Counted from the first letter of the stretch, positions 55-35,034 are shown. The stretch: DNA of 64,000 nt from an uncultured virus (IMG/VR IMGVR_UViG_3300033069_000905) (IMGVR_UViG_3300033069_000905:1-64000), one strand, 5' to 3'. The notes: generated by a model from the sequence alone, not told the origin. Program-made: numbers and translations.

Positions 55-88
55 TGGTGCCGGTTGTGTGAATCGAACACACTCAAGC
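55..88 (-). pseudogene. 3' half of a split tRNA (Thr-like)
   Basis: GTGTG-TTCGATT-CACAC T-arm plus AACCGGC-A-CCA; pairs with the GCCGGTT 5' half at 785-815. Confidence 0.8.
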
Positions 89-96
89 TGCGTTCT

Positions 97-172
97 TGGA
101 GCTTTCGGTCGGACTCGAACCGACAAATGCAACCTTACAAGAGTTGTCCTGTACCAATTGAGGCACGAAAGC
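97..172 (-). tRNA. tRNA-Thr(UGU)
   Basis: Cloverleaf, anticodon arm CAACT-CTTGTAA-GGTTG, encoded CCA. Confidence 0.92.
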
Positions 173-176
173 AAAA

Positions 177-719
177 TTACCAATACTTCATTACCGTGTT
201 CCTGCTAACGCCTAGAGCACTGGCTATTTCATAACCAGACTGCCCCAAAAGCCTAAGCTGTTTTATTTTAAGCTTAGTGTCGTCAGATGTACCTTTAGTG
301 CGTGCCGTAGCGCAGCTTATCGAACAGCTTGGAGCCCAACTATCACCATAAGACTTCATACTCTGGTTAACAATTCGCCTAGTGCGTTTAAATTTAACAC
401 CGCATGTAGGGCAAGAAAACTCTACCCACTCTATTTTGCTGGCAGCACTCTTAGCTGTCTTTTTCTTGTGGTCATCCACAGAGAGAACCTGTAGATTAGA
501 CAACGCATCGTTAAGCGGGTTATCGTCTATGTGGTCAACTTGTTCTTCTGGCAGCAAAAAGCGCCCCAACTCCACAGACAATAAATACCTAGCGTAAGCT
601 ATTAGACGCCTTCTTTTAGTTGTTGGGTTGTATAGGTACAAATACGCCCTGCCGTCCTTACTGTGTTGAATGTAACCCACACAATCATTATAAGGGTATG
701 TTAGTGGTATCCCTTTCAT
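177..719 (-). CDS. HNH homing endonuclease with Zn finger and C-terminal HTH
   Basis: VDHIDDNPLNDALSNL HNH motif, CPTC..CSISC, C-terminal GVSRNTVMKYW. Confidence 0.88.
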   Translation of the reverse strand: MKGIPLTYPYNDCVGYIQHSKDGRAYLYLYNPTTKRRRLIAYARYLLSVELGRFLLPEEQVDHIDDNPLNDALSNLQVLSVDDHKKKTAKSAASKIEWVEFSCPTCGVKFKRTRRIVNQSMKSYGDSWAPSCSISCATARTKGTSDDTKLKIKQLRLLGQSGYEIASALGVSRNTVMKYW

Positions 720-743
720 CGGCTAGTCTCCGCAAAAGCCAAC

Positions 744-772
744 AGTATACACGGAGAAAAGATTTAGTGCAA
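744..772 (-). promoter_or_regulatory. sigma70-type promoter of the HNH gene
   Basis: TTGCAC-N17-TATACT. Confidence 0.6.
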
Positions 773-784
773 TGCCACTAAGCT

Positions 785-815
785 AGTAAGGGCAATCCCA
801 CTATGCGAAACCGGC
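785..815 (-). pseudogene. 5' half of a split tRNA (Thr-like)
   Basis: GCCGGTT-TC-GCAT-AGTGGGA-TTGC-C-CTTAC-T, breaking at the anticodon loop. Confidence 0.8.
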
Positions 816-820
816 AAAAC

Positions 821-2452
821 TTATCTGAAGAACTTAGCGAACTTCTGTACGGGGGCAATGTACTGCTCAGGGACAAGGGGCTTGAACACCGCTGCAACCA
901 TCCCTAGACTCGGGTGCTTCAACCAGTATCCTGTATACCCTTTGCCCTTGATGTTTTTCTCATACAGGCTCATCTGGTTTGTCCAGCTATCCAGCGTGCC
1001 TTTGGGATTCAGCCCATCGGGGTCTTTGACAATATCGTAGAGCGACTTGGGATCAACACCACTGATGTACTTGTGACTACCCAAGCCTTCTTCTTTTTCA
1101 TAGCCCCCCGGCTGGCCTACACCAATGCCGTAGTAACTCCTGTCGACCCAATCATCAGGGTCAGAGTCCTTACGTGCTTTTTCAGCCCCCGCATAGCCGT
1201 GACCGTAGTGCGAAGGATCAATGCTGCTCAAATTAGCCGCATTCGACCAGTGCGTTAGCTCTACTTTCCCGTCTGCCCGAAGTGGAAGGGAACTGTCTCC
1301 GCTAGCTCCTGATTGATTTGTTCCACCACCTGTTCCAATGTCTTTGCTGGTGTATTGGTTTCCCCGGAAGGGGTGCCCTGCGGACTCGCCTTTCCGAACG
1401 CCGCTTGCACCTTCGGATTCTTCAGGTGTTCCGCTGCTCTGGCATCGGATTCCTTCTCCTGTTCCAAAGCAATATCGTCCAAAGTTTTTCCCGGATGTTT
1501 CTTTGAGAATTCGAGCGCAGCTTTTCTGAACGGATCGTCCTTTTGTAATGTGGGCGTAGATTTCATCACTAATTTCCTTGTTGGCATGCATTGTATCAGC
1601 AATTGCATGCAGTTTATCGGTTGTATCTGAACCGTATGTGGGAACATCCTCCAATTTTCCTTGGTGAATATCCTCGACACCCCCAAAATTATTGACCACG
1701 TGGATTTTCACACGAGGATTTCCAGCGTAGTGTTCTGCCAGCTTTCTAATATTATTAGAAGCACCGACATGTGCACCAACCAACGTCTTCGTCAAAACTG
1801 TGCGTGCACGTTTAGCGTTTGAACGGAAAGCGTCCTCAAGTTTTCTGTTGGTGTAGGCAATCACCACATCACCTTTAGTTTTAACCAAGGCTTCATCAAT
1901 CTTGCTCTTGGCTGAACCAAAGTTACCCAAGACAGAATCAAAAACCAAACCACCCTTTTTAGCGTTGATGGCCTTTAGCACAATCGGCATGGCTTCGCTC
2001 TTGCCCGACCCACTGCCACCTGCGGTCAGTATCGTGGGGCTAGTATCCCCTGCTTTGGCCTTAGCATCCAGTTCTGTACTAAACAACACCTTGGAGAGCA
2101 ACGAACTAGGCTCATGCACGGCAGCAGCAAACAAAGAAGGGTTCGACAGGAAATCGGGGGATAGTTCTTTTACCTTATCCGCGTCAATCGTGTGCCCGTT
2201 CTTTTCCTGATAGGCTTTGATCAGCGACGGCAAATCTTTTTCAATAGCACCATAAAACGCCGACTCTGCTCTGCGCTGTGTTGGGTCTAAATCACCAATA
2301 TGTGCACGGCCCTTACTGTCGGTATAGTCTTGGCCTTGGGATACGCCTTTTCCATATTGGTTTCCACGGAAAGGGTGGCCTACCACATCCCCTTTAAGGA
2401 CATAAGATATATCATTTCTTAGTAGGGCAGCAAACATAGCAACTCCAATCAA
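821..2452 (-). CDS. Two-module putative virion effector: zeta-toxin-like P-loop kinase plus uncharacterised C-terminal domain
   Basis: TAGGSGSGKS Walker A and VFDS; the motif GHPFRGNQY occurs twice, once before each module. Confidence 0.75.
   Translation of the reverse strand: MIGVAMFAALLRNDISYVLKGDVVGHPFRGNQYGKGVSQGQDYTDSKGRAHIGDLDPTQRRAESAFYGAIEKDLPSLIKAYQEKNGHTIDADKVKELSPDFLSNPSLFAAAVHEPSSLLSKVLFSTELDAKAKAGDTSPTILTAGGSGSGKSEAMPIVLKAINAKKGGLVFDSVLGNFGSAKSKIDEALVKTKGDVVIAYTNRKLEDAFRSNAKRARTVLTKTLVGAHVGASNNIRKLAEHYAGNPRVKIHVVNNFGGVEDIHQGKLEDVPTYGSDTTDKLHAIADTMHANKEISDEIYAHITKGRSVQKSCARILKETSGKNFGRYCFGTGEGIRCQSSGTPEESEGASGVRKGESAGHPFRGNQYTSKDIGTGGGTNQSGASGDSSLPLRADGKVELTHWSNAANLSSIDPSHYGHGYAGAEKARKDSDPDDWVDRSYYGIGVGQPGGYEKEEGLGSHKYISGVDPKSLYDIVKDPDGLNPKGTLDSWTNQMSLYEKNIKGKGYTGYWLKHPSLGMVAAVFKPLVPEQYIAPVQKFAKFFR
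1261..1566 (-). CDS. Nested alternative-frame ORF, candidate antitoxin
   Basis: ATG at 1566 preceded by AAGGA; charged helical 101-aa product overlapping the linker of 821-2452. Confidence 0.45.
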   Translation of the reverse strand: MKSTPTLQKDDPFRKAALEFSKKHPGKTLDDIALEQEKESDARAAEHLKNPKVQAAFGKASPQGTPSGETNTPAKTLEQVVEQINQELAETVPFHFGQTGK

Positions 2453-2461
2453 CCGTGCAGA

Positions 2462-2680
2462 CTAACCGCGCCCCAAGATCACGTTAAGACCCTTGTTGTC
2501 CCCGGTCTTTTCTACAGCGTAACCCAATTCATGCAGTTCGTCGTCGGACACTTCAAGATCATCAGGCCATGCTGCGTCAATCAACGCTCTACGTCTTTTT
2601 AGCTCCGCAGAGATGGCTTCATCAGAGGGATAATGTTTCGAGTCTAAGGGGGGAAACTCAGGTAAATTTATCTTAGGCAT
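2462..2680 (-). CDS. Small acidic protein, candidate immunity protein
   Basis: AGGAG then ATG (MPKINLPEF), overlapping the stop of the upstream effector. Confidence 0.6.
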   Translation of the reverse strand: MPKINLPEFPPLDSKHYPSDEAISAELKRRRALIDAAWPDDLEVSDDELHELGYAVEKTGDNKGLNVILGRG

Positions 2681-3497
2681 AGGATACTCCTGTAAAAGCC
2701 TTCTTAAATAATATGTTGATGAACTTTGTGACACGGTGCTTCATCTTTTTCACCATGGCGTCCCAACCGGCTTTCAACTCCGGGTGCTTGGCAATATAGG
2801 GATCAATGACTTTATTGTACTCTGTTCTTCCTGCTTCACGGGTATCCCAACTCCCAATGAAGCCCCCGCTACCCTTCATATAGGTGTGCTTGCTGCCGAA
2901 AGACTTAGCCGCTTTGGTTACATTCAGGGACAGCGCCTTACCTTCTTTCGATGATGCGTTGTCGCTAAACACAATCACCTGAAATCCTTCATGTCCTGCA
3001 TGGGGGAGCAATGTATGAAATGGGAGTCCTTGCTCTACCAGTTCCTTGCTCAGCAACACAGGGTCAGAAATGTTCGCATCAAACGTATGCATCTTCTGGT
3101 TGCCTTTTCCTGTTTTAAAGGAAACTACGGCTTTCTGTTCTGCTAAATAGCCTTTCATCGCGGCTGAAACATTCAGCTTTTCTAATGGAAGGTCGTTAGC
3201 ACTAAATTGTGCGATTGAATTCTCACCACCGTCCGACCATGCGCCTATTGCATCTTCTTGAGCGCCTTGCGTCCCCAAAAGATTGTCAACGGCTTGGAAG
3301 TCTTTGCGGAAATGGCGCTGTAACGTGCCGCCTGAACGCCGCATGGCGTAGTTAATGTCCGTGCCTTCACGCACATTGGGGGAGACAAATTGAATGCCTA
3401 CAGGGGCGGTAGATTGAACAGACGCCGAACCGTTGGACGATGAAAACTTTCCATCAACCCCATGGTTGTGGTTGAACTTAAGGATATGTGAAAACAT
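2673..3497 (-). CDS. Putative virion effector, unknown function
   Basis: N-terminal MFSHILK-FNHNHGVDGKF tag; resembles 21008-21886. Confidence 0.7.
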   Translation of the reverse strand: MFSHILKFNHNHGVDGKFSSSNGSASVQSTAPVGIQFVSPNVREGTDINYAMRRSGGTLQRHFRKDFQAVDNLLGTQGAQEDAIGAWSDGGENSIAQFSANDLPLEKLNVSAAMKGYLAEQKAVVSFKTGKGNQKMHTFDANISDPVLLSKELVEQGLPFHTLLPHAGHEGFQVIVFSDNASSKEGKALSLNVTKAAKSFGSKHTYMKGSGGFIGSWDTREAGRTEYNKVIDPYIAKHPELKAGWDAMVKKMKHRVTKFINILFKKAFTGVSYA

Positions 3498-3509
3498 GGG
3501 GACGCGGCT

Positions 3510-3932
3510 TTAAGTAGTAAACTCACCGTTAGAATTAACAGCCAAACTAGCCGCTGGGTGTGCTTTACCCGCATCTGTTAACTCCCCTGTTAACAACGTG
3601 TGATCATGCTGCCTATACTTAGTAGGCTCGGGGGTGAATTTAGACGTCCACGGCTCTCTAACGTGATCTACACTGCTTACATGCTTAACTAGACCTTTAT
3701 CAACTAGCATCTGATAGGCATTCCTATTCAGTTCCGAGTCTTTAGCGTCTTTATTGTGATAAATTGGAACAACTACGGGTGTGTGTGACTGCTTACCCCC
3801 CCCATTTAAACGACTATTACGCAAGAGCATGTGTGATCTTTCTTCAATTTTTTTTCTTTGAGCGGGTGAATAGGCTCCCGCATGACGACCCGAACCCGGC
3901 CCACCTTTAAGAATCTTTGCAAAGTTATTCAT
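3510..3932 (-). CDS. Putative virion-packaged small protein
   Basis: MNNFAKILK-GGPGSGRH N-terminal tag. Confidence 0.65.
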   Translation of the reverse strand: MNNFAKILKGGPGSGRHAGAYSPAQRKKIEERSHMLLRNSRLNGGGKQSHTPVVVPIYHNKDAKDSELNRNAYQMLVDKGLVKHVSSVDHVREPWTSKFTPEPTKYRQHDHTLLTGELTDAGKAHPAASLAVNSNGEFTT

Positions 3933-3994
3933 ATCGCACCTAAAAAAAGCCAACTTTAACACTCTACACTAGGGGGGGACATTCTAATAATTTA

Positions 3995-4082
3995 TGGCGG
4001 AAACGGTGCGATTCGAACGCACGTGCCCTTTCGGACTGCCGGTATTCAAAGCCGGTGCAATTGACCACTCTGCCACGTTTCC
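3995..4082 (-). tRNA. tRNA-Ser(UGA)
   Basis: Long variable arm, loop TTTGAAT, G73, CCA. Confidence 0.92.
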
Positions 4083-4087
4083 AAAAC

Positions 4088-4627
4088 TTAAAAAAATTTA
4101 CTACGTCCTTTAAAAAAACCAGAGGGGATACAGCCCAACTCAGAACGCCACTTCTTATTAACTTTACCATCGGTAATCCAAAAAGACCCAAACTGCGAGT
4201 TGCGCTTACCCTTCTGGTGTTCAATGGCAATAAACGTATCTTTCCGCTTTTGCGTAGCCACTTCAGTATGTGCAGCAATCGTCCCCAAGTGCCTGAACTC
4301 ATGCAGTCGACTGCGCCCCTTAGCCCACATATCACCCATGTTATCTTGTTGAGTTCCAAGGAATAAGTGTTCGGGATTGCAACACAAGGGAGTATCGCAC
4401 TTGTGTAGGACAAATAACCCATCTGGTATTTCACCTTTAACTAGAAGCCAAGCTAGCCTGTGTGCCAATAGCATTACACGCTCTTGACTATTCGGCCTTA
4501 TAGTTACCTTACCGTAGCCTTTATTATTTGGTTGCCGCAACCAAAGCCAACAGCTATCTGTTTTCTGCACGTTAGACCAAAACCTAGCTATTTGTTTTTT
4601 ACTTATCCGCATGGTTCGACTCCACAA
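4088..4627 (-). CDS. HNH homing endonuclease
   Basis: CWLW..AHRLAW..VLHKCDTPLCCNPEHL..DN motif. Confidence 0.9.
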   Translation of the reverse strand: MWSRTMRISKKQIARFWSNVQKTDSCWLWLRQPNNKGYGKVTIRPNSQERVMLLAHRLAWLLVKGEIPDGLFVLHKCDTPLCCNPEHLFLGTQQDNMGDMWAKGRSRLHEFRHLGTIAAHTEVATQKRKDTFIAIEHQKGKRNSQFGSFWITDGKVNKKWRSELGCIPSGFFKGRSKFF

Positions 4628-4663
4628 AAATAATATTTTAGCAGAAGTCGAACAGTTTTAGTG

Positions 4664-4747
4664 TGGAAAATTGAGTAATCGAAACTCATCCCTTTCGGAA
4701 CCTTCTGTTTTCGAGGCAGAGGCTATACCCTGATAGCTTAATTTTCC
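4664..4747 (-). tRNA. tRNA-Ser(CGA), no encoded CCA
   Basis: TCTGC-CTCGAAA-ACAGA arm and long variable arm; 5' end overlapped by the HNH stop codon. Confidence 0.8.
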
Positions 4748-5145
4748 TTTTTAACTTTTTTGTCATGCTGCTGCTTCTTGACTTGGCACGACCTTCCACA
4801 ACACACATCAGCATGCCCGTTAGCTCTAACCCTGCACACGTAAACATGCTTCCTCAAGGTGAAAGCAGAACCGCACCAAAAACAAAAAAGAGACACCAGA
4901 ACAGGCGACTTAATCGGTAGGTTACTGTGGTGTGCATCATGAGAAGTCTTTGACATTTTCTCAAGGTTAAGGAAAACGTTATTGCGCTTGTCCTCATCTT
5001 TGTGGTGAATCAACTCGCCAGCAAGTACGACTTCACCTGTATTCAACCACCAAACCAAATGATGTTCATAGCAGTAGCGACCACGGTACCTCTTGCCCGG
5101 ATACCCTTCAGGCGCTATGACTAAAGTATACTCACCATTCTTCAT
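4738..5145 (-). CDS. HNH homing endonuclease
   Basis: YEHHLVWW..IHHKDEDKRNN..NL..H, followed by CFWC Zn finger. Confidence 0.88.
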   Translation of the reverse strand: MKNGEYTLVIAPEGYPGKRYRGRYCYEHHLVWWLNTGEVVLAGELIHHKDEDKRNNVFLNLEKMSKTSHDAHHSNLPIKSPVLVSLFCFWCGSAFTLRKHVYVCRVRANGHADVCCGRSCQVKKQQHDKKVKKEN

Positions 5146-5150
5146 ACGTG

Positions 5151-5239
5151 CTCCCCAGAGAAGACTCGAACTTCTATACGGCGCTAGGCCGACTACACGA
5201 TATTAACAGTATCGCCTCTTACCATTAGAGTACCGGGGA
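5151..5239 (-). tRNA. tRNA-Asn(GUU) with long variable arm, no encoded CCA
   Basis: CGATA-CTGTTAA-TATCG arm, TCCCCGG/CTGGGGA acceptor, G73. Confidence 0.85.
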
Positions 5240-5266
5240 ATTGATCTTTTTGCACCCACTTTCCGA

Positions 5267-5298
5267 CAAGTCCTTGCACCTTGCTTGGATTCTGCGGA
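5267..5298 (-). pseudogene. 5' half of a tRNA (Asn-like)
   Basis: TCCGCAG-AA-TCC-AAGCAAGGTGCA-AGGA-CTTG, stopping before an anticodon loop. Confidence 0.6.
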
Positions 5299-5307
5299 AT
5301 TGAAACT

Positions 5308-5347
5308 TGGTATCCGGTACGGGAGTCAAACCCGCCTCACCTTGAAC
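5308..5347 (-). pseudogene. 3' half of a tRNA (Glu-like)
   Basis: TTC-AA-GGTGA..CGGG-TTTGACT-CCCG..ACCGGAT-A-CCA with no 5' half. Confidence 0.65.
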
Positions 5348-5380
5348 GGTATCGGTCAACAAAGATTTCTTACTAAGTAA

Positions 5381-5457
5381 TGGCGCTGGCGATGGGAGTC
5401 GAACCCACATTGCTTTGATTGAAGGTCAAATGTCCTAGTCCATTAGACGACACCAGC
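5381..5457 (-). tRNA. tRNA-Glu(UUC)
   Basis: TTTGA-CCTTCAA-TCAAA arm, CCA. Confidence 0.9.
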
Positions 5458-5579
5458 ATTGTTACCCGCCTCGCATAGCTTAATCATACGAGACTTTTTA
5501 CCGTTACAGCTACGACTACAAGAAAAACTGGAACACCCGTGCGCTAATTAGTAGCTTCCGTTAAAGCCTTTGATGCAGT

Positions 5580-5668
5580 TGGGGAGTCGTGTGGGGCTTG
5601 AACCCACTAACCTCTTTCGAGACACGGTTCACAGCCGTGTGGCGCGTCCTCTTTGCTCTTACGACTCC
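5580..5668 (-). tRNA. tRNA-His(GUG) with long variable arm
   Basis: 8-bp acceptor with G-1:C73, CACGG-CTGTGAA-CCGTG arm. Confidence 0.88.
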
Positions 5669-5732
5669 ATTGAAACTATGGCTGCTGGCGCGGCCAATTT
5701 GCTCTTCAATCACCATTGAAATTACTTGCAAC

Positions 5733-5807
5733 TGGTAGGCGCGCAGAGATTTGAACTCTGGTAAACCGGGTAAAAGCCGGTGATTCTCCCAATTGAATTA
5801 CACGCCC
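5733..5807 (-). tRNA. tRNA-Lys(UUU)
   Basis: ACCGG-CTTTTAC-CCGGT arm, CCA. Confidence 0.92.
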
Positions 5808-5866
5808 ATTATTCGGGGCGTTTGTCACTTTCTTCTGAACGCATGATAAATCTCCTAAAAATGGGT

Positions 5867-6202
5867 GGTGTTCGTAGTGTGCTACTACGCTAAAAGGAAT
5901 CGTTGGATTTAGCATCTCTGCCTTCCATTGATACTTGCCGTGTGGCTCTGTATGCCATTCGCTCTCAGTGGGTGCAACCCCCATTCCTTCAGCAGTTTGC
6001 GAGACTGCCTTGGCGTGATTTGCTTCGTCTTTCGATTGGTACTTGGAGTCCAGACCCCAAGCCGTTCTAAGAATCCACACAAACCCTATTGAACTTTTCG
6101 GCCAGTTAACTATGCCCTTAAACTGCCTATGTGTACCTGCATACAGCACTTGTCCTACTCTTTAAGGGATGGCTGCTTCTAAGCCCACCCTCTACGAACA
6201 CC
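5867..6202 (-). ncRNA. Structured RNA with a 23S rRNA H43/H44-like core, copy 1
   Basis: 11-bp terminal stem; GGTGGGCTTAGAAGCAGCCATC near the 5' end and AGCGTAGTAGCACAC near the 3' end; paralogue at 9643-9985. Confidence 0.8.
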
Positions 6203-6208
6203 GAAACT

Positions 6209-6508
6209 TTAAAAACTCAGACGATCATACATCGCCCAAACCTTCTTAGCCCCCGCAATAGCTTCCTTGTCGGCACGTTCAACGTTGTAGCTGACGTACC
6301 CCTTTTGATGAAGGATACGCAAAGGCGGGATGCCCAACTTGCGCTTGGCAAAGTATTCTTCGGGGCTGTAGTTCGCCTTCAGAAACTTCACAAAATGCTT
6401 GGCACTGGCCTTGGGGGATGCGTACTTGAACCGGGCCACGATTTCATTATTATGGCGAACGTACACTTCCTGACTACCTTCGATTACTATATTCCACATG
6501 ATCATCAC
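6209..6508 (-). CDS. Hypothetical protein
   Basis: ORF with GGAG RBS and an upstream TTGACA box. Confidence 0.65.
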   Translation of the reverse strand: MMIMWNIVIEGSQEVYVRHNNEIVARFKYASPKASAKHFVKFLKANYSPEEYFAKRKLGIPPLRILHQKGYVSYNVERADKEAIAGAKKVWAMYDRLSF

Positions 6509-6570
6509 TCCGTTGATTGACTATGGAGTAATGATAATCCAATCCCCACAGTTTGTCAAGGAGTATGTGA

Positions 6571-6647
6571 TGGTAGGACGTGTCAGGATCGAACTGACGA
6601 CCTATCGCTTAAGAGGCGAGTGCTACTACCGACTGAGCTAACGTCCC
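6571..6647 (-). tRNA. tRNA-Lys(CUU)
   Basis: Loop CTCTTAA, CCA. Confidence 0.92.
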
Positions 6648-6657
6648 ATTAAAACTC

Positions 6658-6732
6658 TGGTGCCCCTTGTCTGAATCAAACAGACGACCTATCGCTTACG
6701 AAACGATTGCTCTATCACTGCGCTAAAAGGGC
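6658..6732 (-). tRNA. tRNA-Thr(CGU)
   Basis: ATCGT-TTCGTAA-GCGAT arm, CCA. Confidence 0.88.
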
Positions 6733-6738
6733 GAAACT

Positions 6739-6813
6739 TGGTGCCCTTGGTCGGAATCGAACCCACGACCTCTCGCTTACCAAGCGAGTGCACTGCCACT
6801 GTGCTACAAGGGC
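6739..6813 (-). tRNA. tRNA-Thr(GGU)
   Basis: CTCGC-TTGGTAA-GCGAG arm, CCA. Confidence 0.92.
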
Positions 6814-6819
6814 GAAACT

Positions 6820-6893
6820 TGGAGCGGAAGACGAGAATCAAACTCGCGTATCTTGCTTGGCAAACAAGCGCTTTATCACTAAGCTACATCCGC
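6820..6893 (-). tRNA. tRNA-Gly(GCC)
   Basis: CTTGT-TTGCCAA-GCAAG arm, U73, CCA. Confidence 0.9.
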
Positions 6894-6899
6894 AAAACT

Positions 6900-6970
6900 T
6901 GGCACCCCGAGAAGGTTTCGAACCTCCCATTTTTGGCTTAGAAGGCCAAAATCTGTCCCACAGTCGGGGT
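6900..6970 (-). tRNA. tRNA-Arg(UCU), shortened D-arm
   Basis: TTGGC-CTTCTAA-GCCAA arm, CCA, 71 nt. Confidence 0.8.
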
Positions 6971-6971
6971 A

Positions 6972-7042
6972 TGGTGCCCTCAGACAGAGTTTAACTGTCA
7001 CAATCTGGTTTAGGAAACCTGATGCTATTCGATAGTGAGGGC
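6972..7042 (-). tRNA. tRNA-Arg(CCU), shortened D-arm and atypical T-loop
   Basis: Loop TTCCTAA, GCCCTCA/TGAGGGC acceptor, CCA. Confidence 0.7.
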
Positions 7043-7048
7043 ATAGAC

Positions 7049-7125
7049 TGGTACCCTTGGTCGGACTCGAACCGACAGAACCGCACCCCTCAAGCGCGTG
7101 TGTATGCCTATTCCACCACAAGGGC
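7049..7125 (-). tRNA. tRNA-Leu(GAG), short variable loop
   Basis: CGCGC-TTGAGGG-GTGCG arm, A73, CCA. Confidence 0.88.
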
Positions 7126-7131
7126 AAAACT

Positions 7132-7208
7132 TGGTGCCGGGTGCGGGAGTCGAACCCGCAAGATCAAGTTTTTGAAACTTGCACGTATGCCAATTCCGTC
7201 AACCCGGC
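7132..7208 (-). tRNA. tRNA-Leu(CAA), short variable loop
   Basis: CAAGT-TTCAAAA-ACTTG arm, CCA. Confidence 0.9.
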
Positions 7209-7214
7209 GTAACA

Positions 7215-7302
7215 TGGCGGTTAGGTAGGGGTTCGAACCCTAGTGCCCTTTCGGACTCATTGTTTAGCAAACAAGACGCTTTAGCCACTCGCGCACCTAA
7301 CC
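7215..7302 (-). tRNA. tRNA-Ser(GCU)
   Basis: Loop TTGCTAA, long variable arm, G73, CCA. Confidence 0.9.
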
Positions 7303-7310
7303 TTAAAACA

Positions 7311-7394
7311 TGGCAGAGAGATACAGAATCGAACTGTCACCCTTTCGGATGGACTACCTTTCCAAGATAGTTTGCTTCCAAAGCTCATCTCTCT
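7311..7394 (-). tRNA. tRNA-Ser(GGA)
   Basis: CTATC-TTGGAAA-GGTAG arm, long variable arm, CCA. Confidence 0.85.
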
Positions 7395-7400
7395 AAAAAC

Positions 7401-7475
7401 TGGAAGGGGTGGTAGGAATCGAACCTGACTAACCTTGGTTCAAAGCCAAGTATGCATCCATTGCATATCACCCCA
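7401..7475 (-). tRNA. tRNA-Gln(UUG)
   Basis: CTTGG-CTTTGAA-CCAAG arm, CCA. Confidence 0.85.
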
Positions 7476-7494
7476 CTCGACTATACAGTAATCT

Positions 7495-7572
7495 TGGTGC
7501 ACCCTCTAGGAATCGAACCTAGTTCTACAGTTCTTCAAACTGTCGCTGAATCACCAGACTAGCTCAGAGCGC
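7495..7572 (-). tRNA. tRNA-Phe(GAA)
   Basis: ACAGT-TTGAAGA-ACTGT arm, CCA. Confidence 0.9.
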
Positions 7573-7575
7573 AAA

Positions 7576-7727
7576 TACGTAGGAAGGTCTTACAGGGTTG
7601 CGCCCTGCTCACCTTCTTGTCAGCACAGCATTAAGCTTTGCATGTTAGGGCGTCGACCCCCACATGAAAACTGACCGTACCCCATCGACCTCGTGGGCCA
7701 CGCACGTTCCTTCCGTGATGCTACGTA
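7576..7727 (-). ncRNA. Candidate structured RNA between tRNA-Cys and tRNA-Phe
   Basis: Terminal TACGTAG/CTACGTA stem and internal hairpins; fills the spacer almost exactly. Confidence 0.45.
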
Positions 7728-7730
7728 ACT

Positions 7731-7805
7731 TGGAGTGTCCCCCCGGAATTGAACCGGGCTATCAGGGTTTGCAATCCTGCACATCGGCCTCTCTGTCAGG
7801 GACAC
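7731..7805 (-). tRNA. tRNA-Cys(GCA)
   Basis: Loop TTGCAAA, U73, CCA. Confidence 0.9.
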
Positions 7806-7841
7806 AGTTGAAACTACCTGTCTGTACGTTAGCACACACAG

Positions 7842-8342
7842 TTAAATTTTTATCCCCGCAACGTACTCTTTGTTCTCAAGGGCAAACTTGACCCCCATCG
7901 AAAACACGTCATCCGTGTAGTCACGCAGATTCTCATAATCCTTCTTGAGCCAGCGCATGTACAGCGCACGCTTCAAATCCTGCTCGGGGCTGTTTCGATA
8001 CTGCTCATCCCCACCTTCATAAACCTTGGACTGCCAGTACGCACCGTGACCCATGTGGGTATGCTTCTCAGTGGTGACCATGATCCCCACTTTTTGCATG
8101 ATGCCTTGCTTTTTGGCTTTCACGCAAATCGACCCCCAACAATCCCGCCAACCCTTGCCATTTCCGGGTGTTGTGCCCTTGCGAGCAAGGAAAGAAACGA
8201 GGACTTGTGCCGATGTAAAACGATAATGGAGTTTTGCGTAGGCATACCAGAAGCGTAGGGCTTCATCAACAATCTCGGGGGGTACGCTAGCTAAAGCATT
8301 CTCAATACCTTCGGATGTGGCTTGTTTCTGTTCGGGGGACAT
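7842..8342 (-). CDS. Hypothetical protein
   Basis: 166-aa ORF with AGGAG RBS. Confidence 0.7.
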   Translation of the reverse strand: MSPEQKQATSEGIENALASVPPEIVDEALRFWYAYAKLHYRFTSAQVLVSFLARKGTTPGNGKGWRDCWGSICVKAKKQGIMQKVGIMVTTEKHTHMGHGAYWQSKVYEGGDEQYRNSPEQDLKRALYMRWLKKDYENLRDYTDDVFSMGVKFALENKEYVAGIKI

Positions 8343-8403
8343 GTTGACTCCTGTGGGTATAAATACCTAAGACCATCCCGCCACTAAGACTGGGGAAATT
8401 AAT

Positions 8404-8464
8404 CGGGGAACAAACAGCTAGTCGGATTTTTCACCGAAAGAAGAACGACTAACCAACACCACCG
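8404..8464 (-). ncRNA. Y-RNA-like stem RNA, copy 1
   Basis: CGGTGGTGT...TTGTTCCCCG closing motif shared by four copies. Confidence 0.55.
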
Positions 8465-8469
8465 AAACT

Positions 8470-8546
8470 TGGTTGCTTGTGTCGGATTTGAACCGACGAC
8501 CTGTGCCTTATCAAGACAATGCTCTGCCGGACTGAGCTAACAAGCA
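8470..8546 (-). tRNA. tRNA-Ile(GAU)
   Basis: Loop TTGATAA, CCA. Confidence 0.9.
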
Positions 8547-8556
8547 ATAAATAAAT

Positions 8557-8620
8557 GCGGGAACAAGCGGTAACCGTGTGATTTCACTAAGATAGAAGTA
8601 ACGGTAACCATACACCACGC
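8557..8620 (-). ncRNA. Y-RNA-like stem RNA, copy 2
   Basis: GCGTGGTGTA...CTTGTTCCCGC. Confidence 0.55.
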
Positions 8621-8652
8621 AAATCTGCTACTGGGGTGATCCTTCTATGAAC

Positions 8653-8791
8653 ACAGGAACAAGCCCCCACGTAATTCTGTAAATACAACTGCTGACCTTT
8701 AGTGATTTTGAGGCTTTCCTAGCCCCCACCAAGGTTCTATGCTTTGATAAAATTTTGATTCTAGTAGAACCGGCACGAAAGCACACACCGT
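8653..8791 (-). ncRNA. Y-RNA-like stem RNA, copy 3
   Basis: ACGGTGTGT...CTTGTTCCTGT with a larger loop domain. Confidence 0.45.
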
Positions 8792-8903
8792 AAAACTGTC
8801 GCATGATCCCCCCGAACAGAAGTTGAAGAACAGTCTGTTCAAGGGAACCCCACGTTTACCGTATGCTCGGGGAACTACTTAGGCTTCTGGCCTTTGTTTA
8901 ATT

Positions 8904-9026
8904 CTGGGAACAAGCAACAACGAAATTTTTAGTGTCCTAACCACTAGACGACAGCCCTTACGAGCCGATGGGATTCGAACCCACGTTACTTCATTGGCAT
9001 TGAGGAAATCGTTATTTACGCCACAG
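8904..9026 (-). ncRNA. YrlA-like Y RNA with a circularly permuted tRNA-like domain
   Basis: CTGTGGCGTA...CTTGTTCCCAG stem enclosing a T-arm (GTGGG-TTCGAAT-CCCAT), a closed stem, then a D-arm (GTCTAGTGGTTAGGAC). Confidence 0.7.
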
Positions 9027-9030
9027 AAAC

Positions 9031-9108
9031 TGGTTGCGGGTACAGGGAGTCTAACCCTGCTGTTAATGGGATATGAACCCATTGTGTAAGACGTTTCACT
9101 CACCCGCG
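9031..9108 (-). tRNA. tRNA-Met(CAU), initiator-like
   Basis: C1:A72 mismatch, ATGGG-TTCATAT-CCCAT arm with three G-C pairs, CCA. Confidence 0.85.
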
Positions 9109-9548
9109 AAACTTTTTTCCAAATAGGCCAGCAAACTCTCCATGTGCTGTTTAACACTCTCGTAAGAATCCCCTAGCCTACCTAAAACTGTATTACAACG
9201 CATGCACAAGACGCCTCTAACTTTAGACGTGGTGTGGCAGTGGTCTAGCACAACAGAGACAGTGGAACCGCAGCTTTCACAAGCCCCAGAACTGCGCTCT
9301 ATTGCTTCTTCTACATCCGCTAACGGAACACCGTGCCGCCAAGCGATTTCTTTCAGTCTGTTGGCTGTTTTAAAACGAGCAACAGACGCTACCTGCTTAT
9401 CCTTGTTCTTTGGGTACCACACAGTACGCACGTAGGTATTATGGCAGTCTTTACATTTACTAGCGTACCCACGCTTTGAACTCTTGTCTTTGGAAAAGCT
9501 AGCTAAAGGCTTGCTTTCTTTACAACTGCAACATAGTAAGTGTGTCAT
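9096..9548 (-). CDS. Endonuclease VII-type HNH endonuclease
   Basis: CESC..VLDHCHTTSKVRGVLCMRCN motif and N-terminal CxxC repeats. Confidence 0.9.
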   Translation of the reverse strand: MTHLLCCSCKESKPLASFSKDKSSKRGYASKCKDCHNTYVRTVWYPKNKDKQVASVARFKTANRLKEIAWRHGVPLADVEEAIERSSGACESCGSTVSVVLDHCHTTSKVRGVLCMRCNTVLGRLGDSYESVKQHMESLLAYLEKSFAGE

Positions 9549-9588
9549 TGCATACCCCCACGGGTATCATAACACAACTAGCGAAAAA

Positions 9589-9626
9589 GGTTATGAGCCT
9601 GTCTGGTAACCAACAACCTCCTCGCC
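9589..9626 (-). pseudogene. 5' part of a tRNA with CAU anticodon
   Basis: GGCGAGG..GGT-TGTTGGTT-ACC..ACAGG-CTCATAA-CC, truncated just after the loop. Confidence 0.7.
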
Positions 9627-9642
9627 AAACTTTTTACAACAG

Positions 9643-32804: not shown

Positions 32805-33584
32805 TTATGTCCCCCTTCCGTATCTCGAAATGAGATAGTTCTTACGGGCAATTAGCTTGTTAGCCAAGATACTTCTTTTTTCAGTTGACGCATTATAATA
32901 CGTAGCAACTAATTTGTCAATATCCTCATCCGAAACCGCTGCAACCTTCTTCACAGAATTAGCCACTTCCTGCTCAGACATGCCCCCAAAAACCTGAGCG
33001 GCGTTGAAGGATTTTGTTTGATCCCGCATCCGATCTATTTCAGGAACCGTATCACCAAACACGTCACCTTTGGGTTGTCCTTGGGCACGGTACTGCATGG
33101 AACCCCCCACATCGACACGGAAGGCTTTTCCGTCAGGGTGCATGAGCATGTTATCGTGACCCATCCCTGCGGTATCCCAATTCGACAACCACGCATCCAC
33201 AGCGAAACCTTCTTTAGCCCCTTCAACATGTCGAATCTCACGGTGCATGTTTTTCATCCCCGAAGTCCATTTCGAGGCAACGCCAATATGCCCGTTGTAC
33301 ATGATAGGCTTCACATCGGGAACACGAACCCCTGCGGCTTTGTATAGGTGTGATGCTAGGACTTCGTTATAAACGTGGTCTGCTGTTTTGGGGAACTTGA
33401 CGTAGTACTTCTGCCCTGTTTCATCATAGGCTTGGAATCCGGGGTTTGATCCGCCCTGTGAATCATCTTTTTTCGTCCAGTGGTCTATTGACTCTGGTAC
33501 AGGGGAGTTACCTGCGCGAAACTTGCCGCCCATCGGGGAGCCTTTAGGCCAGCGTAGTTCTTCTTTCAATATGGATGCGTACAT
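32805..33584 (-). CDS. HipA/PI3K-like kinase, putative virion effector
   Basis: GGSNPG, YYVK, NEVLA, DAWLSNWD..DNML, VDVG; MYASILK..RWPKGSPMGGKF tag. Confidence 0.75.
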   Translation of the reverse strand: MYASILKEELRWPKGSPMGGKFRAGNSPVPESIDHWTKKDDSQGGSNPGFQAYDETGQKYYVKFPKTADHVYNEVLASHLYKAAGVRVPDVKPIMYNGHIGVASKWTSGMKNMHREIRHVEGAKEGFAVDAWLSNWDTAGMGHDNMLMHPDGKAFRVDVGGSMQYRAQGQPKGDVFGDTVPEIDRMRDQTKSFNAAQVFGGMSEQEVANSVKKVAAVSDEDIDKLVATYYNASTEKRSILANKLIARKNYLISRYGRGT

Positions 33585-33658
33585 AAGTCCCCCACAAAAG
33601 GGCAGTATAGACTGAAATGACGCTTCCTATAGTGTGCGTTGAAATTACTTGCAATTAA

Positions 33659-33734
33659 TGGTGGACGGGTCTGGACTCGAACCAGAATAAGGCTATTATG
33701 AGTAGCCCGTAATCAACCCTTATACGACACGTCC
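33659..33734 (-). tRNA. tRNA with CAU anticodon (Ile2 or elongator Met)
   Basis: GGCTA-CTCATAA-TAGCC arm, CCA. Confidence 0.85.
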
Positions 33735-33743
33735 TAATTTAAC

Positions 33744-34286
33744 TCAAACACGATACTTCCTAATGGTGTTACCACTGACACCCAAAGCCAAGGCTATGCC
33801 AGAAGTGGCGACACCGCTGGCGTGTAGTCTTTTTATTTCAGCTACCACCGTGTCGGACAGACTTTTATAGGAACCCATATTTACATTGCCCGAACACGAA
33901 CGAGAACAGTAACTAGGTTTTCCCAAATGCGTGTGCTTGTACGCATGACTTTTTGATCGTACAAACGCTAGACCACACTTTTTACAGGTTAGGTGAACCA
34001 ACTCAGCAGGGTTATCAGCGACGTACTTCTCTCTATTGGCCTTTGCACTGAGTATTTGAAAGTTCTCTAGTCTATCATCAAGTTTATCCCCGTTTACGTG
34101 GTCAACTGTCTCATCACGCAGCATAACCCTACCTAAGTGGACGGACATTAGGTACTTAGCATAAGACAATGTGAGTCTTTCCCTGCTTCCGGGTTTAACT
34201 AAGCACGCCATTCTACGTTTTTCTTTCTTGTGGAGAACAACGTAGAGTCTATACTCTTGGTACGGATAGTCAGCTTGGGTAGGCAT
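33744..34286 (-). CDS. HNH homing endonuclease with Zn finger and HTH
   Basis: VDHVNGDKLDDRLEN, CKKC, GVSGNTIRKY; similar to 177-719. Confidence 0.88.
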   Translation of the reverse strand: MPTQADYPYQEYRLYVVLHKKEKRRMACLVKPGSRERLTLSYAKYLMSVHLGRVMLRDETVDHVNGDKLDDRLENFQILSAKANREKYVADNPAELVHLTCKKCGLAFVRSKSHAYKHTHLGKPSYCSRSCSGNVNMGSYKSLSDTVVAEIKRLHASGVATSGIALALGVSGNTIRKYRV

Positions 34287-34292
34287 GTTGCA

Positions 34293-34321
34293 ATTATACG
34301 GACTATACTTTTTGCCGTCAA
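34293..34321 (-). promoter_or_regulatory. sigma70 promoter, probably giving a leaderless HNH mRNA
   Basis: TTGACG-N17-TATAAT, 6 nt before the ATG. Confidence 0.7.
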
Positions 34322-34327
34322 CTACTA

Positions 34328-34356
34328 AGTTGCTACTGCCCCTGAGCTATACACCC
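34328..34356 (-). pseudogene. 5' half of a tRNA
   Basis: GGGTGTA-TA-GCTC-AGGGGCAG-TAGC-AACT, then breaks. Confidence 0.72.
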
Positions 34357-34360
34357 TGTT

Positions 34361-34400
34361 TGGTAGGCCGGGAGGGAGTCGAACCCTCGGTGTTTCTAGT
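34361..34400 (-). pseudogene. 3' half of a split tRNA (Leu-like)
   Basis: GAGGG-TTCGACT-CCCTC-CCGGCCT-A-CCA; pairs with 35001-35034. Confidence 0.8.
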
Positions 34401-34403
34401 GTG

Positions 34404-34907
34404 TTACTGTACGTGCTGATACGACTTGTTGGCAAGAACATTATGTATTACGTGCCTACCAACACCAAAAATTCTACCCCACTCTGACGCCATACCGTAC
34501 TTTACTGGCAAAGAACGTAAGTGTCTCACTTGGTCATCCGTAAGCTTAGAAGCCGCTCTCCTAGCTGTTATACTATTAAAGCGTAGTAACTTAAGCTTCT
34601 CCAAGGCACCTTCCTTACCGTACTTCTTTACCATGCGATCCCACGGTGTAGGGTTACCGTCAGCTAACGCATCAAGACTGTTCTCTTTATACGTACCCCA
34701 ATACAGGTGCTTAGGGTTACTGCATTTACCGTTACTACAAGCGTGACAACAGCATACGCCCGTAGCTATATCGGTATCTAGCACGTAAGCCAGTATTGCC
34801 CTATGCTGCGTTGAACTACCACCCCTCTCAATACAAGGGGAAGCTAAATCTAGGTGTGCTTGCCTAGCTTCTTTTGGAAGCTTTATGTATTCAGACACAA
34901 GAATCAT
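34404..34907 (-). CDS. HNH (His-Cys box-like) endonuclease
   Basis: CCCHACSNGKCSNPKHLYWGTYKEN and C-terminal HTH. Confidence 0.85.
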   Translation of the reverse strand: MILVSEYIKLPKEARQAHLDLASPCIERGGSSTQHRAILAYVLDTDIATGVCCCHACSNGKCSNPKHLYWGTYKENSLDALADGNPTPWDRMVKKYGKEGALEKLKLLRFNSITARRAASKLTDDQVRHLRSLPVKYGMASEWGRIFGVGRHVIHNVLANKSYQHVQ

Positions 34908-34913
34908 AATGAG

Positions 34914-34989
34914 TGCCCCAAGTCAGAGTCGAACTGACAGAATCAAGGGATTTTAAATCCCCCCGCTTTACCAAATTGCGTATTGGGGC
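34914..34989 (-). tRNA. tRNA-Leu(UAA), short variable loop, no encoded CCA
   Basis: GGGGA-TTTAAAA-TCCCT arm, GCCCCAA/TTGGGGC acceptor, A73. Confidence 0.88.
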
Positions 34990-35000
34990 ATATTAACACA

Positions 35001-35034
35001 CCTAATGCGTTTCAACCAACTTCGCCACCGGCCC
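35001..35034 (-). pseudogene. 5' half of a split tRNA (Leu-like)
   Basis: GGGCCGG-TG-GCG-AAGTTGGTTGAAA-CGC-A, a Leu-type D-arm. Confidence 0.8.

Follow-up and report, generated by a model that had tools for sequence, protein, structure and literature searches.

HNH-type nuclease genes and broken tRNA halves in a phage tRNA array, probably left by intronless homing

Layout of the tRNA array

The window is a 64,000-nt stretch of the genome of an uncultured virus (IMG/VR IMGVR_UViG_3300033069_000905, positions 1-64000). ARAGORN found 27 tRNA genes and none further across the whole 131,953-bp genome; one more (6903-6970) was added by Rfam at 30.6 bits, and a tRNA-His(GUG) at 5580-5668 was read by eye. 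Many of the tRNAs in the array are followed by a common spacer motif. The features of interest, all of which lie on the minus strand, are collected in Table 1. Orphan tRNA halves were scored (nhmmer) with a profile made from 289 viral tRNAs.

Table 1 Nuclease genes, adjoining tRNA genes and orphan tRNA halves in the window
Position	Strand	Feature	Evidence
55-88	-	Thr relic, 3' half: T arm, acceptor 3' strand, ACCA	nhmmer E 0.013 (55-81)
97-172	-	Intact tRNA-Thr(UGU), very different from the Thr relic	ARAGORN; Rfam 57.1 bits
177-719	-	Family-A HNH endonuclease, 180 aa (HNH_3, zinc ribbon, C-terminal HTH)	phrog_14913, E 4e-33
785-815	-	Thr relic, 5' half: acceptor, D arm, anticodon-stem 5' strand	Sequence reading, library comparison
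3995-4082	-	tRNA-Ser(UGA)	ARAGORN
4088-4627	-	Family-B HNH endonuclease, 179 aa, with a Ser tRNA on either side	HNH_3, E 1.6e-15; PHROGs
4663-4747	-	tRNA-Ser(CGA)	ARAGORN
4738-5145	-	Family-A HNH endonuclease without HTH, 135 aa	Pfam, PHROGs
5150-5239	-	tRNA-Asn(GUU), long variable arm	ARAGORN
5267-5298	-	Putative 5' half, Asn-like acceptor, weak	Acceptor only; no good library match
5308-5335	-	Orphan 3' half: T arm, acceptor, ACCA; isotype not assigned	E 0.86
8931-8958	-	Orphan 5' half, Glu-type D arm	Best library matches Glu, 6/6
8961-8984	-	Orphan 3' half without CCA	E 0.041
9035-9107	-	tRNA(CAU), initiator hallmarks (C1xA72, GGG/CCC anticodon stem; by-eye reading)	ARAGORN
9096-9548	-	Endonuclease-VII-type nuclease, 150 aa	PF02945, E 4e-15; PHROGs
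9586-9626	-	Met relic: acceptor, short D arm, CAU anticodon arm	By-eye reading; best library matches Met
10476-10547	-	Atypical tRNA-Ala(UGC), G3:U70	ARAGORN; Rfam 24.8 bits
10537-11013	-	Family-A HNH endonuclease with HTH, 158 aa	Pfam, PHROGs
11030-11057	-	Ala relic, 5' half	E 0.29, joint best 5' half in genome
11613-11640	-	Orphan 3' half, earlier annotated as Tyr	E 9e-4
11646-12068	-	HNH endonuclease, 140 aa	phrog_2255
12086-12172	-	Intact tRNA-Tyr(GUA)	ARAGORN
33659-33734	-	Intact tRNA(CAU), elongator Met or Ile2 type	ARAGORN; no Rfam report
33744-34286	-	Family-A HNH endonuclease with HTH, 180 aa	Pfam, PHROGs
34328-34356	-	Orphan 5' half	Nearest tRNAs Asn, Ile(UAU), Val
34361-34400	-	Leu-site relic, 3' half: T arm, acceptor, ACCA	E 0.028 (34361-34388)
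34404-34907	-	Family-B HNH/His-Me endonuclease, 167 aa	Pfam, PHROGs
34913-34989	-	Intact tRNA-Leu(UAA), CCA not encoded	ARAGORN; Rfam 53.2 bits
35001-35034	-	Leu-site relic, 5' half, class-II (Leu-like) D arm	Library comparison, profile search

Eight ORFs carry a homing-type endonuclease domain: Pfam matches at E ≤ 0.01 (HNH_3, Endonuclease_7 or zf-His_Me) were obtained for seven of them, and PHROGs assigned all eight to HNH or endonuclease VII. At least four nuclease subtypes had been claimed in a first-pass annotation of this DNA; several types are indeed present, but the count obtained here is three to four families, representing at least three lineages. The GC content of the genes is 0.43-0.46, against 0.48 genome-wide. 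The genes lie between RNA genes and not inside an intron or intein, and no intron family was matched at E ≤ 10 in 1-13000 or 33000-36000.

All eight genes abut an intact tRNA gene, as the first-pass annotation had reported, at distances of -12 to +17 nt. The nuclease stop codon lies 4 nt upstream of tRNA-Thr at 177-719, 5 nt upstream of tRNA-Ser(UGA) at 4088-4627 and 9 nt upstream of tRNA(CAU) at 33744-34286. It overlaps the tRNA by 12 nt at 9096-9548 and by 11 nt, with tRNA-Ala(UGC), at 10537-11013, while the first 10 nt of tRNA-Ser(CGA) are the last codons and stop of 4738-5145. The other order is found for tRNA-Leu(UAA) and tRNA-Tyr(GUA), which lie 5 and 17 nt upstream of the start codons of 34404-34907 and 11646-12068 respectively. 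Promoter-like sites were seen at 34321-34293 (TTGACG-17-TATAAT), by nuclease 33744-34286, and at 12085-12057, at nuclease 11646-12068.

The broken tRNA halves

Three orphan 3' halves score like genuine tRNA 3' ends (11613-11640, 55-81 and 34361-34388). Orphans cluster round the nuclease blocks, and a nuclease-free block of 12 tRNAs at 6571-7572 holds none. Relics had been claimed at seven of the eight nuclease sites, which is partly confirmed: the Asn relic is weak. No relic was found at the site of nuclease 4088-4627. The breaks do fall in or next to the anticodon arm, and the relics do differ strongly in sequence from the intact copies. Three further orphans were noticed, at 5308-5335, 8961-8984 (50 nt downstream of the initiator-like tRNA) and 8931-8958 (3.5 kb away from the intact tRNA-Glu); none of these directly adjoins a nuclease.

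The Thr site is the clearest. The acceptor strand of the 5' half (815-809) forms 7/7 Watson-Crick pairs with the strand after the orphan T arm, with its ACCA (55-82), and the two halves flank the nuclease and the intact tRNA, so that the claim that both halves are kept holds. The 5' half is preceded by the AGTTT-type spacer usual for the array and ends after about position 32, and in the 3' half neither the anticodon nor the 3' strand of its stem is present; together they miss roughly positions 33-48. Among the 73 IMG/VR tRNAs that have the relic's acceptor and T-loop, ARAGORN called 66 Thr and 7 Tyr(gta), and in all 73 the loop reads TTGTA or TCGTA. Judged by these relatives, the relic is a Thr tRNA.

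At the Leu site, complementary acceptor strands again flank a nuclease and an intact tRNA, in agreement with the earlier reading: strand 35034-35028 pairs 7/7 (one G-U) with the strand after the orphan T arm at 34361-34388. It is plausible that this relic is of the same isotype as the carried tRNA-Leu; none of the three IMG/VR tRNAs with its acceptor reads Leu. The same isotype is plausible too for the Ala relic, whose description as an Ala 5' half is supported, its sole non-self IMG/VR match (n = 1) being a tRNA-Ala.

The relic at 34328-34356 is an orphan 5' half, the first 18 nt of which are common to 11 IMG/VR sequences, but its assignment to a CAU tRNA is not supported: the nine matched tRNAs are six Asn, two Ile(UAU) and one Val. 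The "Tyr" 3' half at 11613-11640 scores like a genuine tRNA end, but no Tyr match was found for it in the tRNA comparisons. The Met relic, which ends after the anticodon arm, has, as claimed, a CAU loop readable by eye, and its best library matches are Met, but it is not initiator-like, unlike the adjacent tRNA(CAU). The supposed Asn 5' half at 5267-5298 shows an Asn-like acceptor and nothing further. The proposal that each carried tRNA replaces a broken one of its own isotype is borne out for Thr only, and the 34.3-kb, Met and Glu-like relics do not fit it.

Natural variants

Variants were identified from joints in contigs of other studies, at ≥85% likeness. Nuclease 4738-5145 is precisely missing in variants X7 and X9 (joint 4747 to 5150, 7 letters between). 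As both flanking tRNAs are kept, separated by this 7-nt spacer, they must be resident and not cargo. Between alleles with and without this nuclease, tRNA-Asn(GUU) differs by five small indels clustered at 5181-5214, which may be a hint, but only a hint, that the nuclease cuts the nuclease-free allele close to its insertion site and that its own allele resists. In X7 a 301-nt segment that includes 5267-5298 is absent or replaced.

X7 has other DNA in place of the blocks that hold nucleases 177-719, 9096-9548 and 11646-12068, and the 11646-12068 block is replaced in X9 also. The DNA that takes the place of these Thr, Met and Tyr blocks is shorter, and the joints lie at tRNA ends (61, 9623 and 11618). 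X7 also carries, where a tRNA ends, an additional insert of 575 nt. Of the six nuclease blocks within 1-12.5 kb, four are polymorphic between near-identical variants, the presence or absence at one locus in close relatives that is characteristic of homing endonuclease genes.

The first-pass annotation predicted that a nuclease-free site would hold one intact tRNA matching the relic. A nuclease-free variant of the Thr site does hold a single intact tRNA, but this resembles the Thr(CGU) gene of the window and not the relic. As this allele is not the intact form of the relic, the split would have arisen in another lineage and the whole block been imported.

Mechanism and rival explanations

The nuclease genes, which belong to three or more HNH/His-Me lineages, are best read as free-standing homing endonuclease genes that spread within a phage tRNA array by SegB-like intronless homing, each linked to a presumably resistant tRNA allele; a probability of roughly 0.6 is given to this reading. 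The tRNA beside each nuclease would be a cut-resistant allele of the target. The nuclease would cut the sensitive tRNA gene of a co-infecting relative, although its target could instead be intergenic, and the nuclease-bearing genome would serve as template for repair. Between a donor and a recipient that resemble each other, this would give a clean insertion or an allele swap, nuclease 4738-5145 being the example. Where the incoming tRNA is too divergent to recombine, the nuclease together with its tRNA would be patched into the break, leaving the recipient tRNA gene as two dead halves (Thr, Leu) or as one (Ala, Met, the 34.3-kb relic and the 11.6-kb relic). The split halves are thus best read as scars of invasion without flanking homology. 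The carried tRNA would take over the job of the broken one as a by-product of the linkage to a resistant allele, and not as a dedicated device. The layout looks like an untidy form of a known spreading route and not a wholly new kind of element.

In its strict form, the proposal of the first-pass annotation is a dedicated selfish composite of nuclease and resistant tRNA of the same isotype, which regularly inserts, with no need of homology, in the tRNA gene that it cuts and makes good the loss with its own tRNA. Both halves are found round the nuclease and tRNA at the Thr and Leu sites, which agrees with insertion into a tRNA gene, as do the Thr identity of the relic at the Thr site, the single Ala match of the Ala relic and the one tRNA carried at the Thr site by the nuclease-free variant. 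Against this, nuclease 4738-5145 has simply been inserted in the spacer between two tRNAs that are also present in its absence, no likeness to CAU tRNAs is seen in the 34.3-kb relic, the Met relic differs in kind from the initiator-like tRNA next to it, 4088-4627 has no relic, and the closest homologs elsewhere are flanked by intact tRNAs. A composite of this sort is considered unlikely. A little less credence is given to the halves as scars left when tRNA arrays undergo ordinary illegitimate recombination at conserved tRNA motifs and tRNA ends, with the nucleases as bystanders that favour the same intergenic spots. That variant blocks end at tRNA termini, that three orphans lack a directly adjoining nuclease and that a spacer motif is shared after many tRNAs would all suit such recombination; the polymorphism of the nuclease blocks and the orphan-free 12-tRNA block speak against it, and no orphan is more than about 70 nt away from a nuclease-linked tRNA.

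That the outer tRNAs still function, the insert being removed as an intron or the halves assembled in trans, is very improbable. The Leu insert is flanked by a 7-nt complement, which can be lengthened to 11 positions if one mismatch is allowed, as might be expected of an archaeal-type trans-split tRNA, but none is present at the Thr site, and the duplex energy of the flanks was reached by 62/500 shuffles for Leu and 449/500 for Thr. Neither a group I intron nor any other family was matched in the inserts (E ≤ 10), and the Thr halves do not supply an anticodon or the 3' strand of its stem. An intron-containing tRNA gene was rejected on the same grounds, and the earlier view that neither intron nor splicing is involved is upheld, with no intron signal at the Thr or Leu splits. 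An assembly chimera is scarcely credible, as the junctions are reproduced by contigs from other studies: the X4 records span 1-5739 (record 1, in two pieces, with 2340-2451 replaced) and 6209-12500 (record 3), and the X6 records span 220-1064 with one difference and 8956-9637 with none. The IMG/VR contig is identical.

Comparison with known systems

SegB of phage T4 is a free-standing homing endonuclease encoded in a tRNA gene cluster. It is described as recognising a T-arm motif in tRNA genes, with a favoured site within a relative's tRNA-Asn gene, and its homing leads to exclusion or replacement of a stretch of the relative's tRNA genes about 1250 bp long (PMC2330249). segB is commonly co-located with tRNAs (PMC2330249; PMC13096335). 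The two systems share a nuclease gene among tRNA genes. In the virus studied here, broken halves of the resident tRNA flank the immigrant block, whereas SegB homing is described as exclusion of the region (PMC2330249) and is not known to leave split half-genes. SegB is a GIY-YIG enzyme, whereas the nucleases here are of HNH/His-Me or endonuclease VII types, and no GIY-YIG domain was matched in the eight ORFs with Pfam or PHROGs; membership of the SegB family was therefore rejected, and the nucleases are regarded as functional analogues.

In the intronless homing of SegF, SegG and MobE the nuclease gene lies beside, and not inside, the gene that is cut, and the linked resistant allele is co-converted. 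The nucleases here likewise lie beside their presumed targets, but those targets would be tRNA genes and halves are left over, whereas SegF, SegG and MobE have protein-gene targets and their homing depends on homology in the flanks, with no fragments duplicated. Phage T5 encodes HNH nicking endonucleases in its tRNA region, and so resembles the present array in having HNH-type nucleases among phage tRNA genes; as far as we know, split tRNA relics have not been reported from T5.

Integrative elements that target tRNA genes likewise disrupt the gene and restore its function with carried DNA. They use an integrase, and an identical 3' tRNA segment is duplicated as direct repeats. Here an entire and very different tRNA gene is carried, and no integrase was recognised among the ORFs scanned at the cassette sites. 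An integrase-borne island was therefore rejected, the relic being unlike the intact tRNA and the ORFs at the sites being nucleases. In the mitochondrial atp6 gene of Allomyces, a mobile endonuclease element brought a replacement gene end and the displaced native part became a pseudogene; there the target is protein-coding, in a eukaryotic organelle, and part of a gene is replaced, whereas here a whole tRNA gene of a phage is concerned.

Homologs elsewhere

The five best loci with family-A homologs all lie within tRNA arrays, and in four of these the start of a tRNA lies at -10 to +28 nt relative to the nuclease stop; the sixth-best locus is 23 nt upstream of a tmRNA. Among the weaker family-A matches a tRNA was found inside the flank in only 2 of 75. 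The closest homologs are placed between intact tRNAs, and no orphan halves were seen at four of the six best loci. Two homolog loci (L078 and L079) each contain one unexplained T arm.

Nucleases and tRNA genes

The phage genome is a single contig of 131,953 bp whose first 64 kb make up the window, and the same sequence, without differences, forms part of a 178-kb IMG/VR contig. All genes of the region are carried on the minus strand. ARAGORN identified 27 tRNAs in the window and none in the remainder of the genome. An additional tRNA at 6903-6970 was found with Rfam (30.6 bits), and a tRNA-His(GUG) was recognised by eye (see table). The tRNA-Asn at 5150-5239 has a variable arm of about 23 nt, and three 'Leu' tRNAs of 77 nt each (7049-7208, 34913-34989) lack a long arm. 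No near relative was present in the phage collection, whether searched by DNA or by two flanking proteins; IMG/VR protein look-ups for close relatives returned the same phage only, and metagenome scans for them returned nothing.

Eight nuclease ORFs were found. PHROGs assigned all eight to HNH or endonuclease VII, and seven matched the Pfam families HNH_3, Endonuclease_7 or zf-His_Me. Alignment and tblastn sorted them into four families, A to D; the estimate of at least four subtypes in the first-pass annotation was about right. Their GC content is 0.43-0.46, compared with 0.48 for the genome. Every one of them lies within -12 to +17 nt of an intact tRNA, which follows the nuclease directly in six cases and precedes it directly in three, nuclease 4738-5145 being flanked on both sides. 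In three nucleases (4738-4747, 9096-9107, 10537-10547) the stop codon overlaps the downstream tRNA, falling within its first 10-12 nt, and RNase P processing of a shared transcript could strip these overlapping nucleases of their stop codon and act as a brake on their expression. A nuclease stop likewise lies inside the 5' end of a downstream tRNA in another viral contig (L080, 1932-1941). Promoter-like sites in 1-12500 numbered 17, which is no enrichment over shuffles (13.3 +/- 3.1).

Coordinates of the nucleases, orphan tRNA 3' halves and tRNA-His(GUG)
Feature	Position	Strand	3'-end profile E	T-arm scan	Remarks
Family A nucleases	177-719, 33744-34286, 10537-11013, 4738-5145	minus			HNH_3 and zinc ribbon; C-terminal helix-turn-helix in first three
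Family B nucleases	4088-4627, 34404-34907	minus			HNH/His-Me
Family C nuclease	9096-9548	minus			endonuclease VII type
Family D nuclease	11646-12068	minus			phrog_2255 HNH
Orphan 3' half	11613-11640	minus	9e-4	11613-11640
Orphan 3' half (Thr)	55-81	minus	0.013	55-82
Orphan 3' half (Leu)	34361-34388	minus	0.028	34361-34388
Orphan 3' half	8964-8984	minus	0.041	8957-8984	lacks CCA
Orphan 3' half	5308-5334	minus	0.86	5308-5335
tRNA-His(GUG)	5580-5668	minus		T arm found	read by eye; extra 5' G, long variable arm; missed by ARAGORN

An alignment of the four family-A members was used to scan IMG/VR and gave 80 loci. The best five all lie within tRNA arrays, and four have a tRNA whose start is -10 to +28 nt past the stop; the sixth-best homolog (L083, 1468-2283) is 23 nt upstream of a tmRNA gene in another viral contig. 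Only two of the 75 weaker loci have a tRNA in the flank. None of the six best loci contains a clear split tRNA; one unexplained T arm is present in each of two loci, L078 and L079. A permuted tmRNA is present in this phage as well, just past the window start (L001, 11347-11677).

Broken tRNA genes

The search pattern for orphan 3' halves was a T arm with 7 nt, a discriminator base and CCA behind it. A profile of tRNA 3' ends, derived from 289 distinct viral tRNAs, placed the orphans among genuine tRNA ends, and its matches beyond tRNA-like sequence were just three, all on the plus strand with E>1. The corresponding 5' profile is weak, recovering 6 of the 27 ARAGORN tRNAs; it picked up the Ala relic at E 0.29, joint best over the whole genome, and the 5' relic of Leu at E 6.5, with no match over the genome outside the array. 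The acceptor strands of the two Thr halves pair 7/7 with Watson-Crick pairs, for which the chance at fixed positions is about 6e-5, and those of the two Leu halves pair 7/7 with one G-U (about 1e-3). A nuclease-free block of 12 tRNAs at 6571-7572 contains no orphans. Three orphans were additional to those of the first-pass annotation, namely 5308-5335, 8961-8984 and a 5' half at 8931-8958 for which all six best library matches were Glu.

The Rfam tRNA model was powerless on cut-out 5' halves, scoring 0 of 14 relic loci, one of three positive controls and none of three negative controls. For cut-out 3' halves, it gave the Leu, 8961-8984 and 11613-11640 relics scores similar to those of the three positive controls, and the Thr and 5308-5335 halves, like the three negative controls, received no score. 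Searching for partners of single halves by acceptor complementarity produced hundreds of chance 7-mers when G-U was allowed. Two other viral contigs (L201 and L204, matches at 201-218) have a tRNA 5' half, comprising acceptor and D arm, that continues into sequence unrelated to tRNA, so broken tRNA genes are present outside this phage as well.

The acceptor stem, T loop and ACCA of the Thr relic were found in 73 tRNAs at 72 IMG/VR loci. ARAGORN called 48 of these Thr(UGU), 18 Thr(CGU) and seven 'Tyr(gta)', the last being taken to be a register ambiguity, and the loop reads TTGTA or TCGTA in all 73. Judged from these calls and loop readings, the relic is a Thr tRNA, and of a type common in phages. 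Its break comes after about position 32, and the anticodon, the 3' strand of the stem and the greater part of the variable loop are missing. The first 19 nt of the Ala relic are common to one non-self tRNA, a tRNA-Ala. The D arm of the Leu relic is class II and Leu-like: its motif occurs at 29 loci in bacterial genomes, 27 of which are not tRNAs and two of which are tRNA-Leu, and four of the relic's six nearest viral tRNAs are Leu. Against a Leu identity, the relic's acceptor pattern was found in three IMG/VR tRNAs reading CAU, CAU and CCA, none of them Leu. The tRNA on the viral contig L076 (match at 1501-1587, minus strand) is class II with a long arm, a Leu-like body and an ARAGORN anticodon of CCA.

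The relic at 34328-34356 had been assigned to a CAU tRNA; none of the 11 sequences sharing its first 18 nt is CAU (six Asn, two Ile(UAU), one Val and two truncated tRNAs). The 'Tyr' identity proposed for the 11.6-kb 3' half was not established, the acceptor pattern scan giving no hits and E. coli matching in tRNA-Thr only (E 0.3). The Asn 5' half has an Asn-like acceptor as its sole basis. When read by eye, the Met relic has a CAU loop without initiator hallmarks, and the intact tRNA beside it has the initiator hallmarks C1xA72 and a GGG/CCC stem.

Natural variants

Runs belonging to at least five other studies, covering river, activated sludge, wastewater and fresh water, contain the window stretch. 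Contigs of four of these runs (X4, X6, X7 and X9) were compared with 1-12500 and variants were read from the contig joints. X4 contigs span 1-5739 (in two pieces, with 2340-2451 replaced) and 6209-12500, and X6 contigs span 220-1064 (one difference) and 8956-9637 (no differences). X7, with contigs of 20 kb and 8.7 kb, and X9 have about 99% identity with the window where shared; blocks differ.

Both X7 and X9 lack nuclease 4738-5145, 4747 being joined to 5150 with 7 letters between, and both retain tRNA-Asn and tRNA-Ser(CGA), the tRNA-Asn with five small indels (5181-5214). In the same two runs 11618-12270 (relic, nuclease, tRNA-Tyr and tRNA-Asp) is replaced by 243 letters. X7 represents the 1150 nt of 8473-9623, which hold the Met relic, a nuclease, the initiator-like tRNA, two orphans and tRNA-Ile, by 364 letters; at the 3' end of tRNA-Gly (6821/6822) it carries 575 additional letters, and a 301-nt segment (5244-5546; tRNA-Glu and two orphans) is absent or replaced. 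X7 also has the Ala block and nuclease 4088-4627. At the Thr site, 879 to 61 is replaced by 81 letters matching the window's tRNA-Thr(CGU) gene and spacer. A single intact tRNA thus occupies this nuclease-free site, where the window has a relic, a nuclease, a tRNA and a second relic, and it is not of the relic's type. Variant joints coincide with tRNA ends at 61, 4747, 5150, 6821, 9623 and 11618.

Interpretation

The pattern fits free-standing homing endonucleases living beside tRNA genes. An assembly artefact was ruled out because the window junctions are reproduced in the X4 and X6 contigs. Sequence searches of the inserts gave no support to their being introns, and joining of the halves in trans is not favoured either, pairing between the flanks being no better than in shuffles.

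Intronless homing has as its standard layout a nuclease beside the resistant allele of its target, and the tRNA adjoining each nuclease would be such an allele. The absence and presence of nuclease 4738-5145 (4747 joined to 5150) would be the clean form of the process, and the Thr and Leu sites the untidy form, in which a foreign block would have filled the break in a resident gene in the absence of homology, both halves remaining. SegB, in the tRNA cluster of T4, has the same layout, with the nuclease next to a tRNA gene. According to the SegB study (PMC2330249), the enzyme recognises the T-arm motif, with a preference for the tRNA-Asn gene of a relative, and a region of tRNA genes of about 1250 bp is excluded through its action; co-location of segB and tRNA genes is called widespread in a 2026 paper (PMC13096335). 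Searches of the literature outside subscription journals found no description of tRNA halves flanking a nuclease and a tRNA.

The first-pass annotation had also proposed that the carried tRNA makes good the loss of the resident one. This is reasonable for Thr but is not supported as a general principle of design: at several sites the isotype test is failed or cannot be passed, and one nuclease clearly moves by itself. It is rather doubtful, at perhaps three chances in ten, that homing nucleases pair with divergent tRNAs as self-compensating mobile units, which would regularly eliminate a resident tRNA gene, put their own in its place and be a main driver of tRNA allele turnover in phage arrays. 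Such units could also spread tRNA variants escaping host tRNA-cutting defences, and the three stop/tRNA overlaps could link the expression of the nucleases with the processing of the tRNAs.

Phage tRNA arrays are now regarded as counter-defence tools. SegB is known to reshape them, and the present locus preserves an unusually full natural record of the process, comprising eight nucleases of several lineages, about a dozen half-gene scars and variants with and without single nucleases. It suggests that tRNA genes are both target and cargo of homing endonucleases, and that invasion across lineages is possible without flanking homology, the broken gene remaining while the immigrant tRNA assumes its job. 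The relic-type and carried-type tRNAs provide substrate pairs for studying how nucleases discriminate between tRNA alleles.

Other features of the region

A frame at 5446-5547 (minus strand), reading into tRNA-Glu, has a CSRSCxG motif like the family-A zinc ribbon and may, as a hint only, be a decayed nuclease: the match covers 7 residues (E 0.008 in a single comparison) and tblastn for a nuclease remnant there gave none. The 301-nt segment around it is the one absent or replaced in X7. Between two orphan halves, the approximately 550 nt of 11058-11612 (minus strand) contain a T-arm-like hairpin and end near ...CCACCA, with no convincing ORF and no Rfam match; variants have a 125- to 121-letter replacement and small indels there. 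Directly downstream of the 33.7-kb nuclease block, a 259-aa protein (32805-33584, minus strand) has 42-47% identity with phage proteins, some annotated as ADP-ribosyltransferase.

A non-coding element of about 330 nt is present in two copies that are 86% identical, A at 5850-6210 and B at 9640-10000, on the minus strand. It had no match in the phage collection. In X4, X6 and X7, 163 letters stand in place of copy A. The summed contig depth of copy B in X9 is 464, so the motif is widespread in that run, and copy B is preceded by a perfect TTGACA-17-TATAAT. Both copies start with a match to the GTPase-centre region of large-subunit rRNA (Rfam LSU positions 1184-1229, E 0.0011), and the element may be either a structured RNA or a mimic of rRNA.
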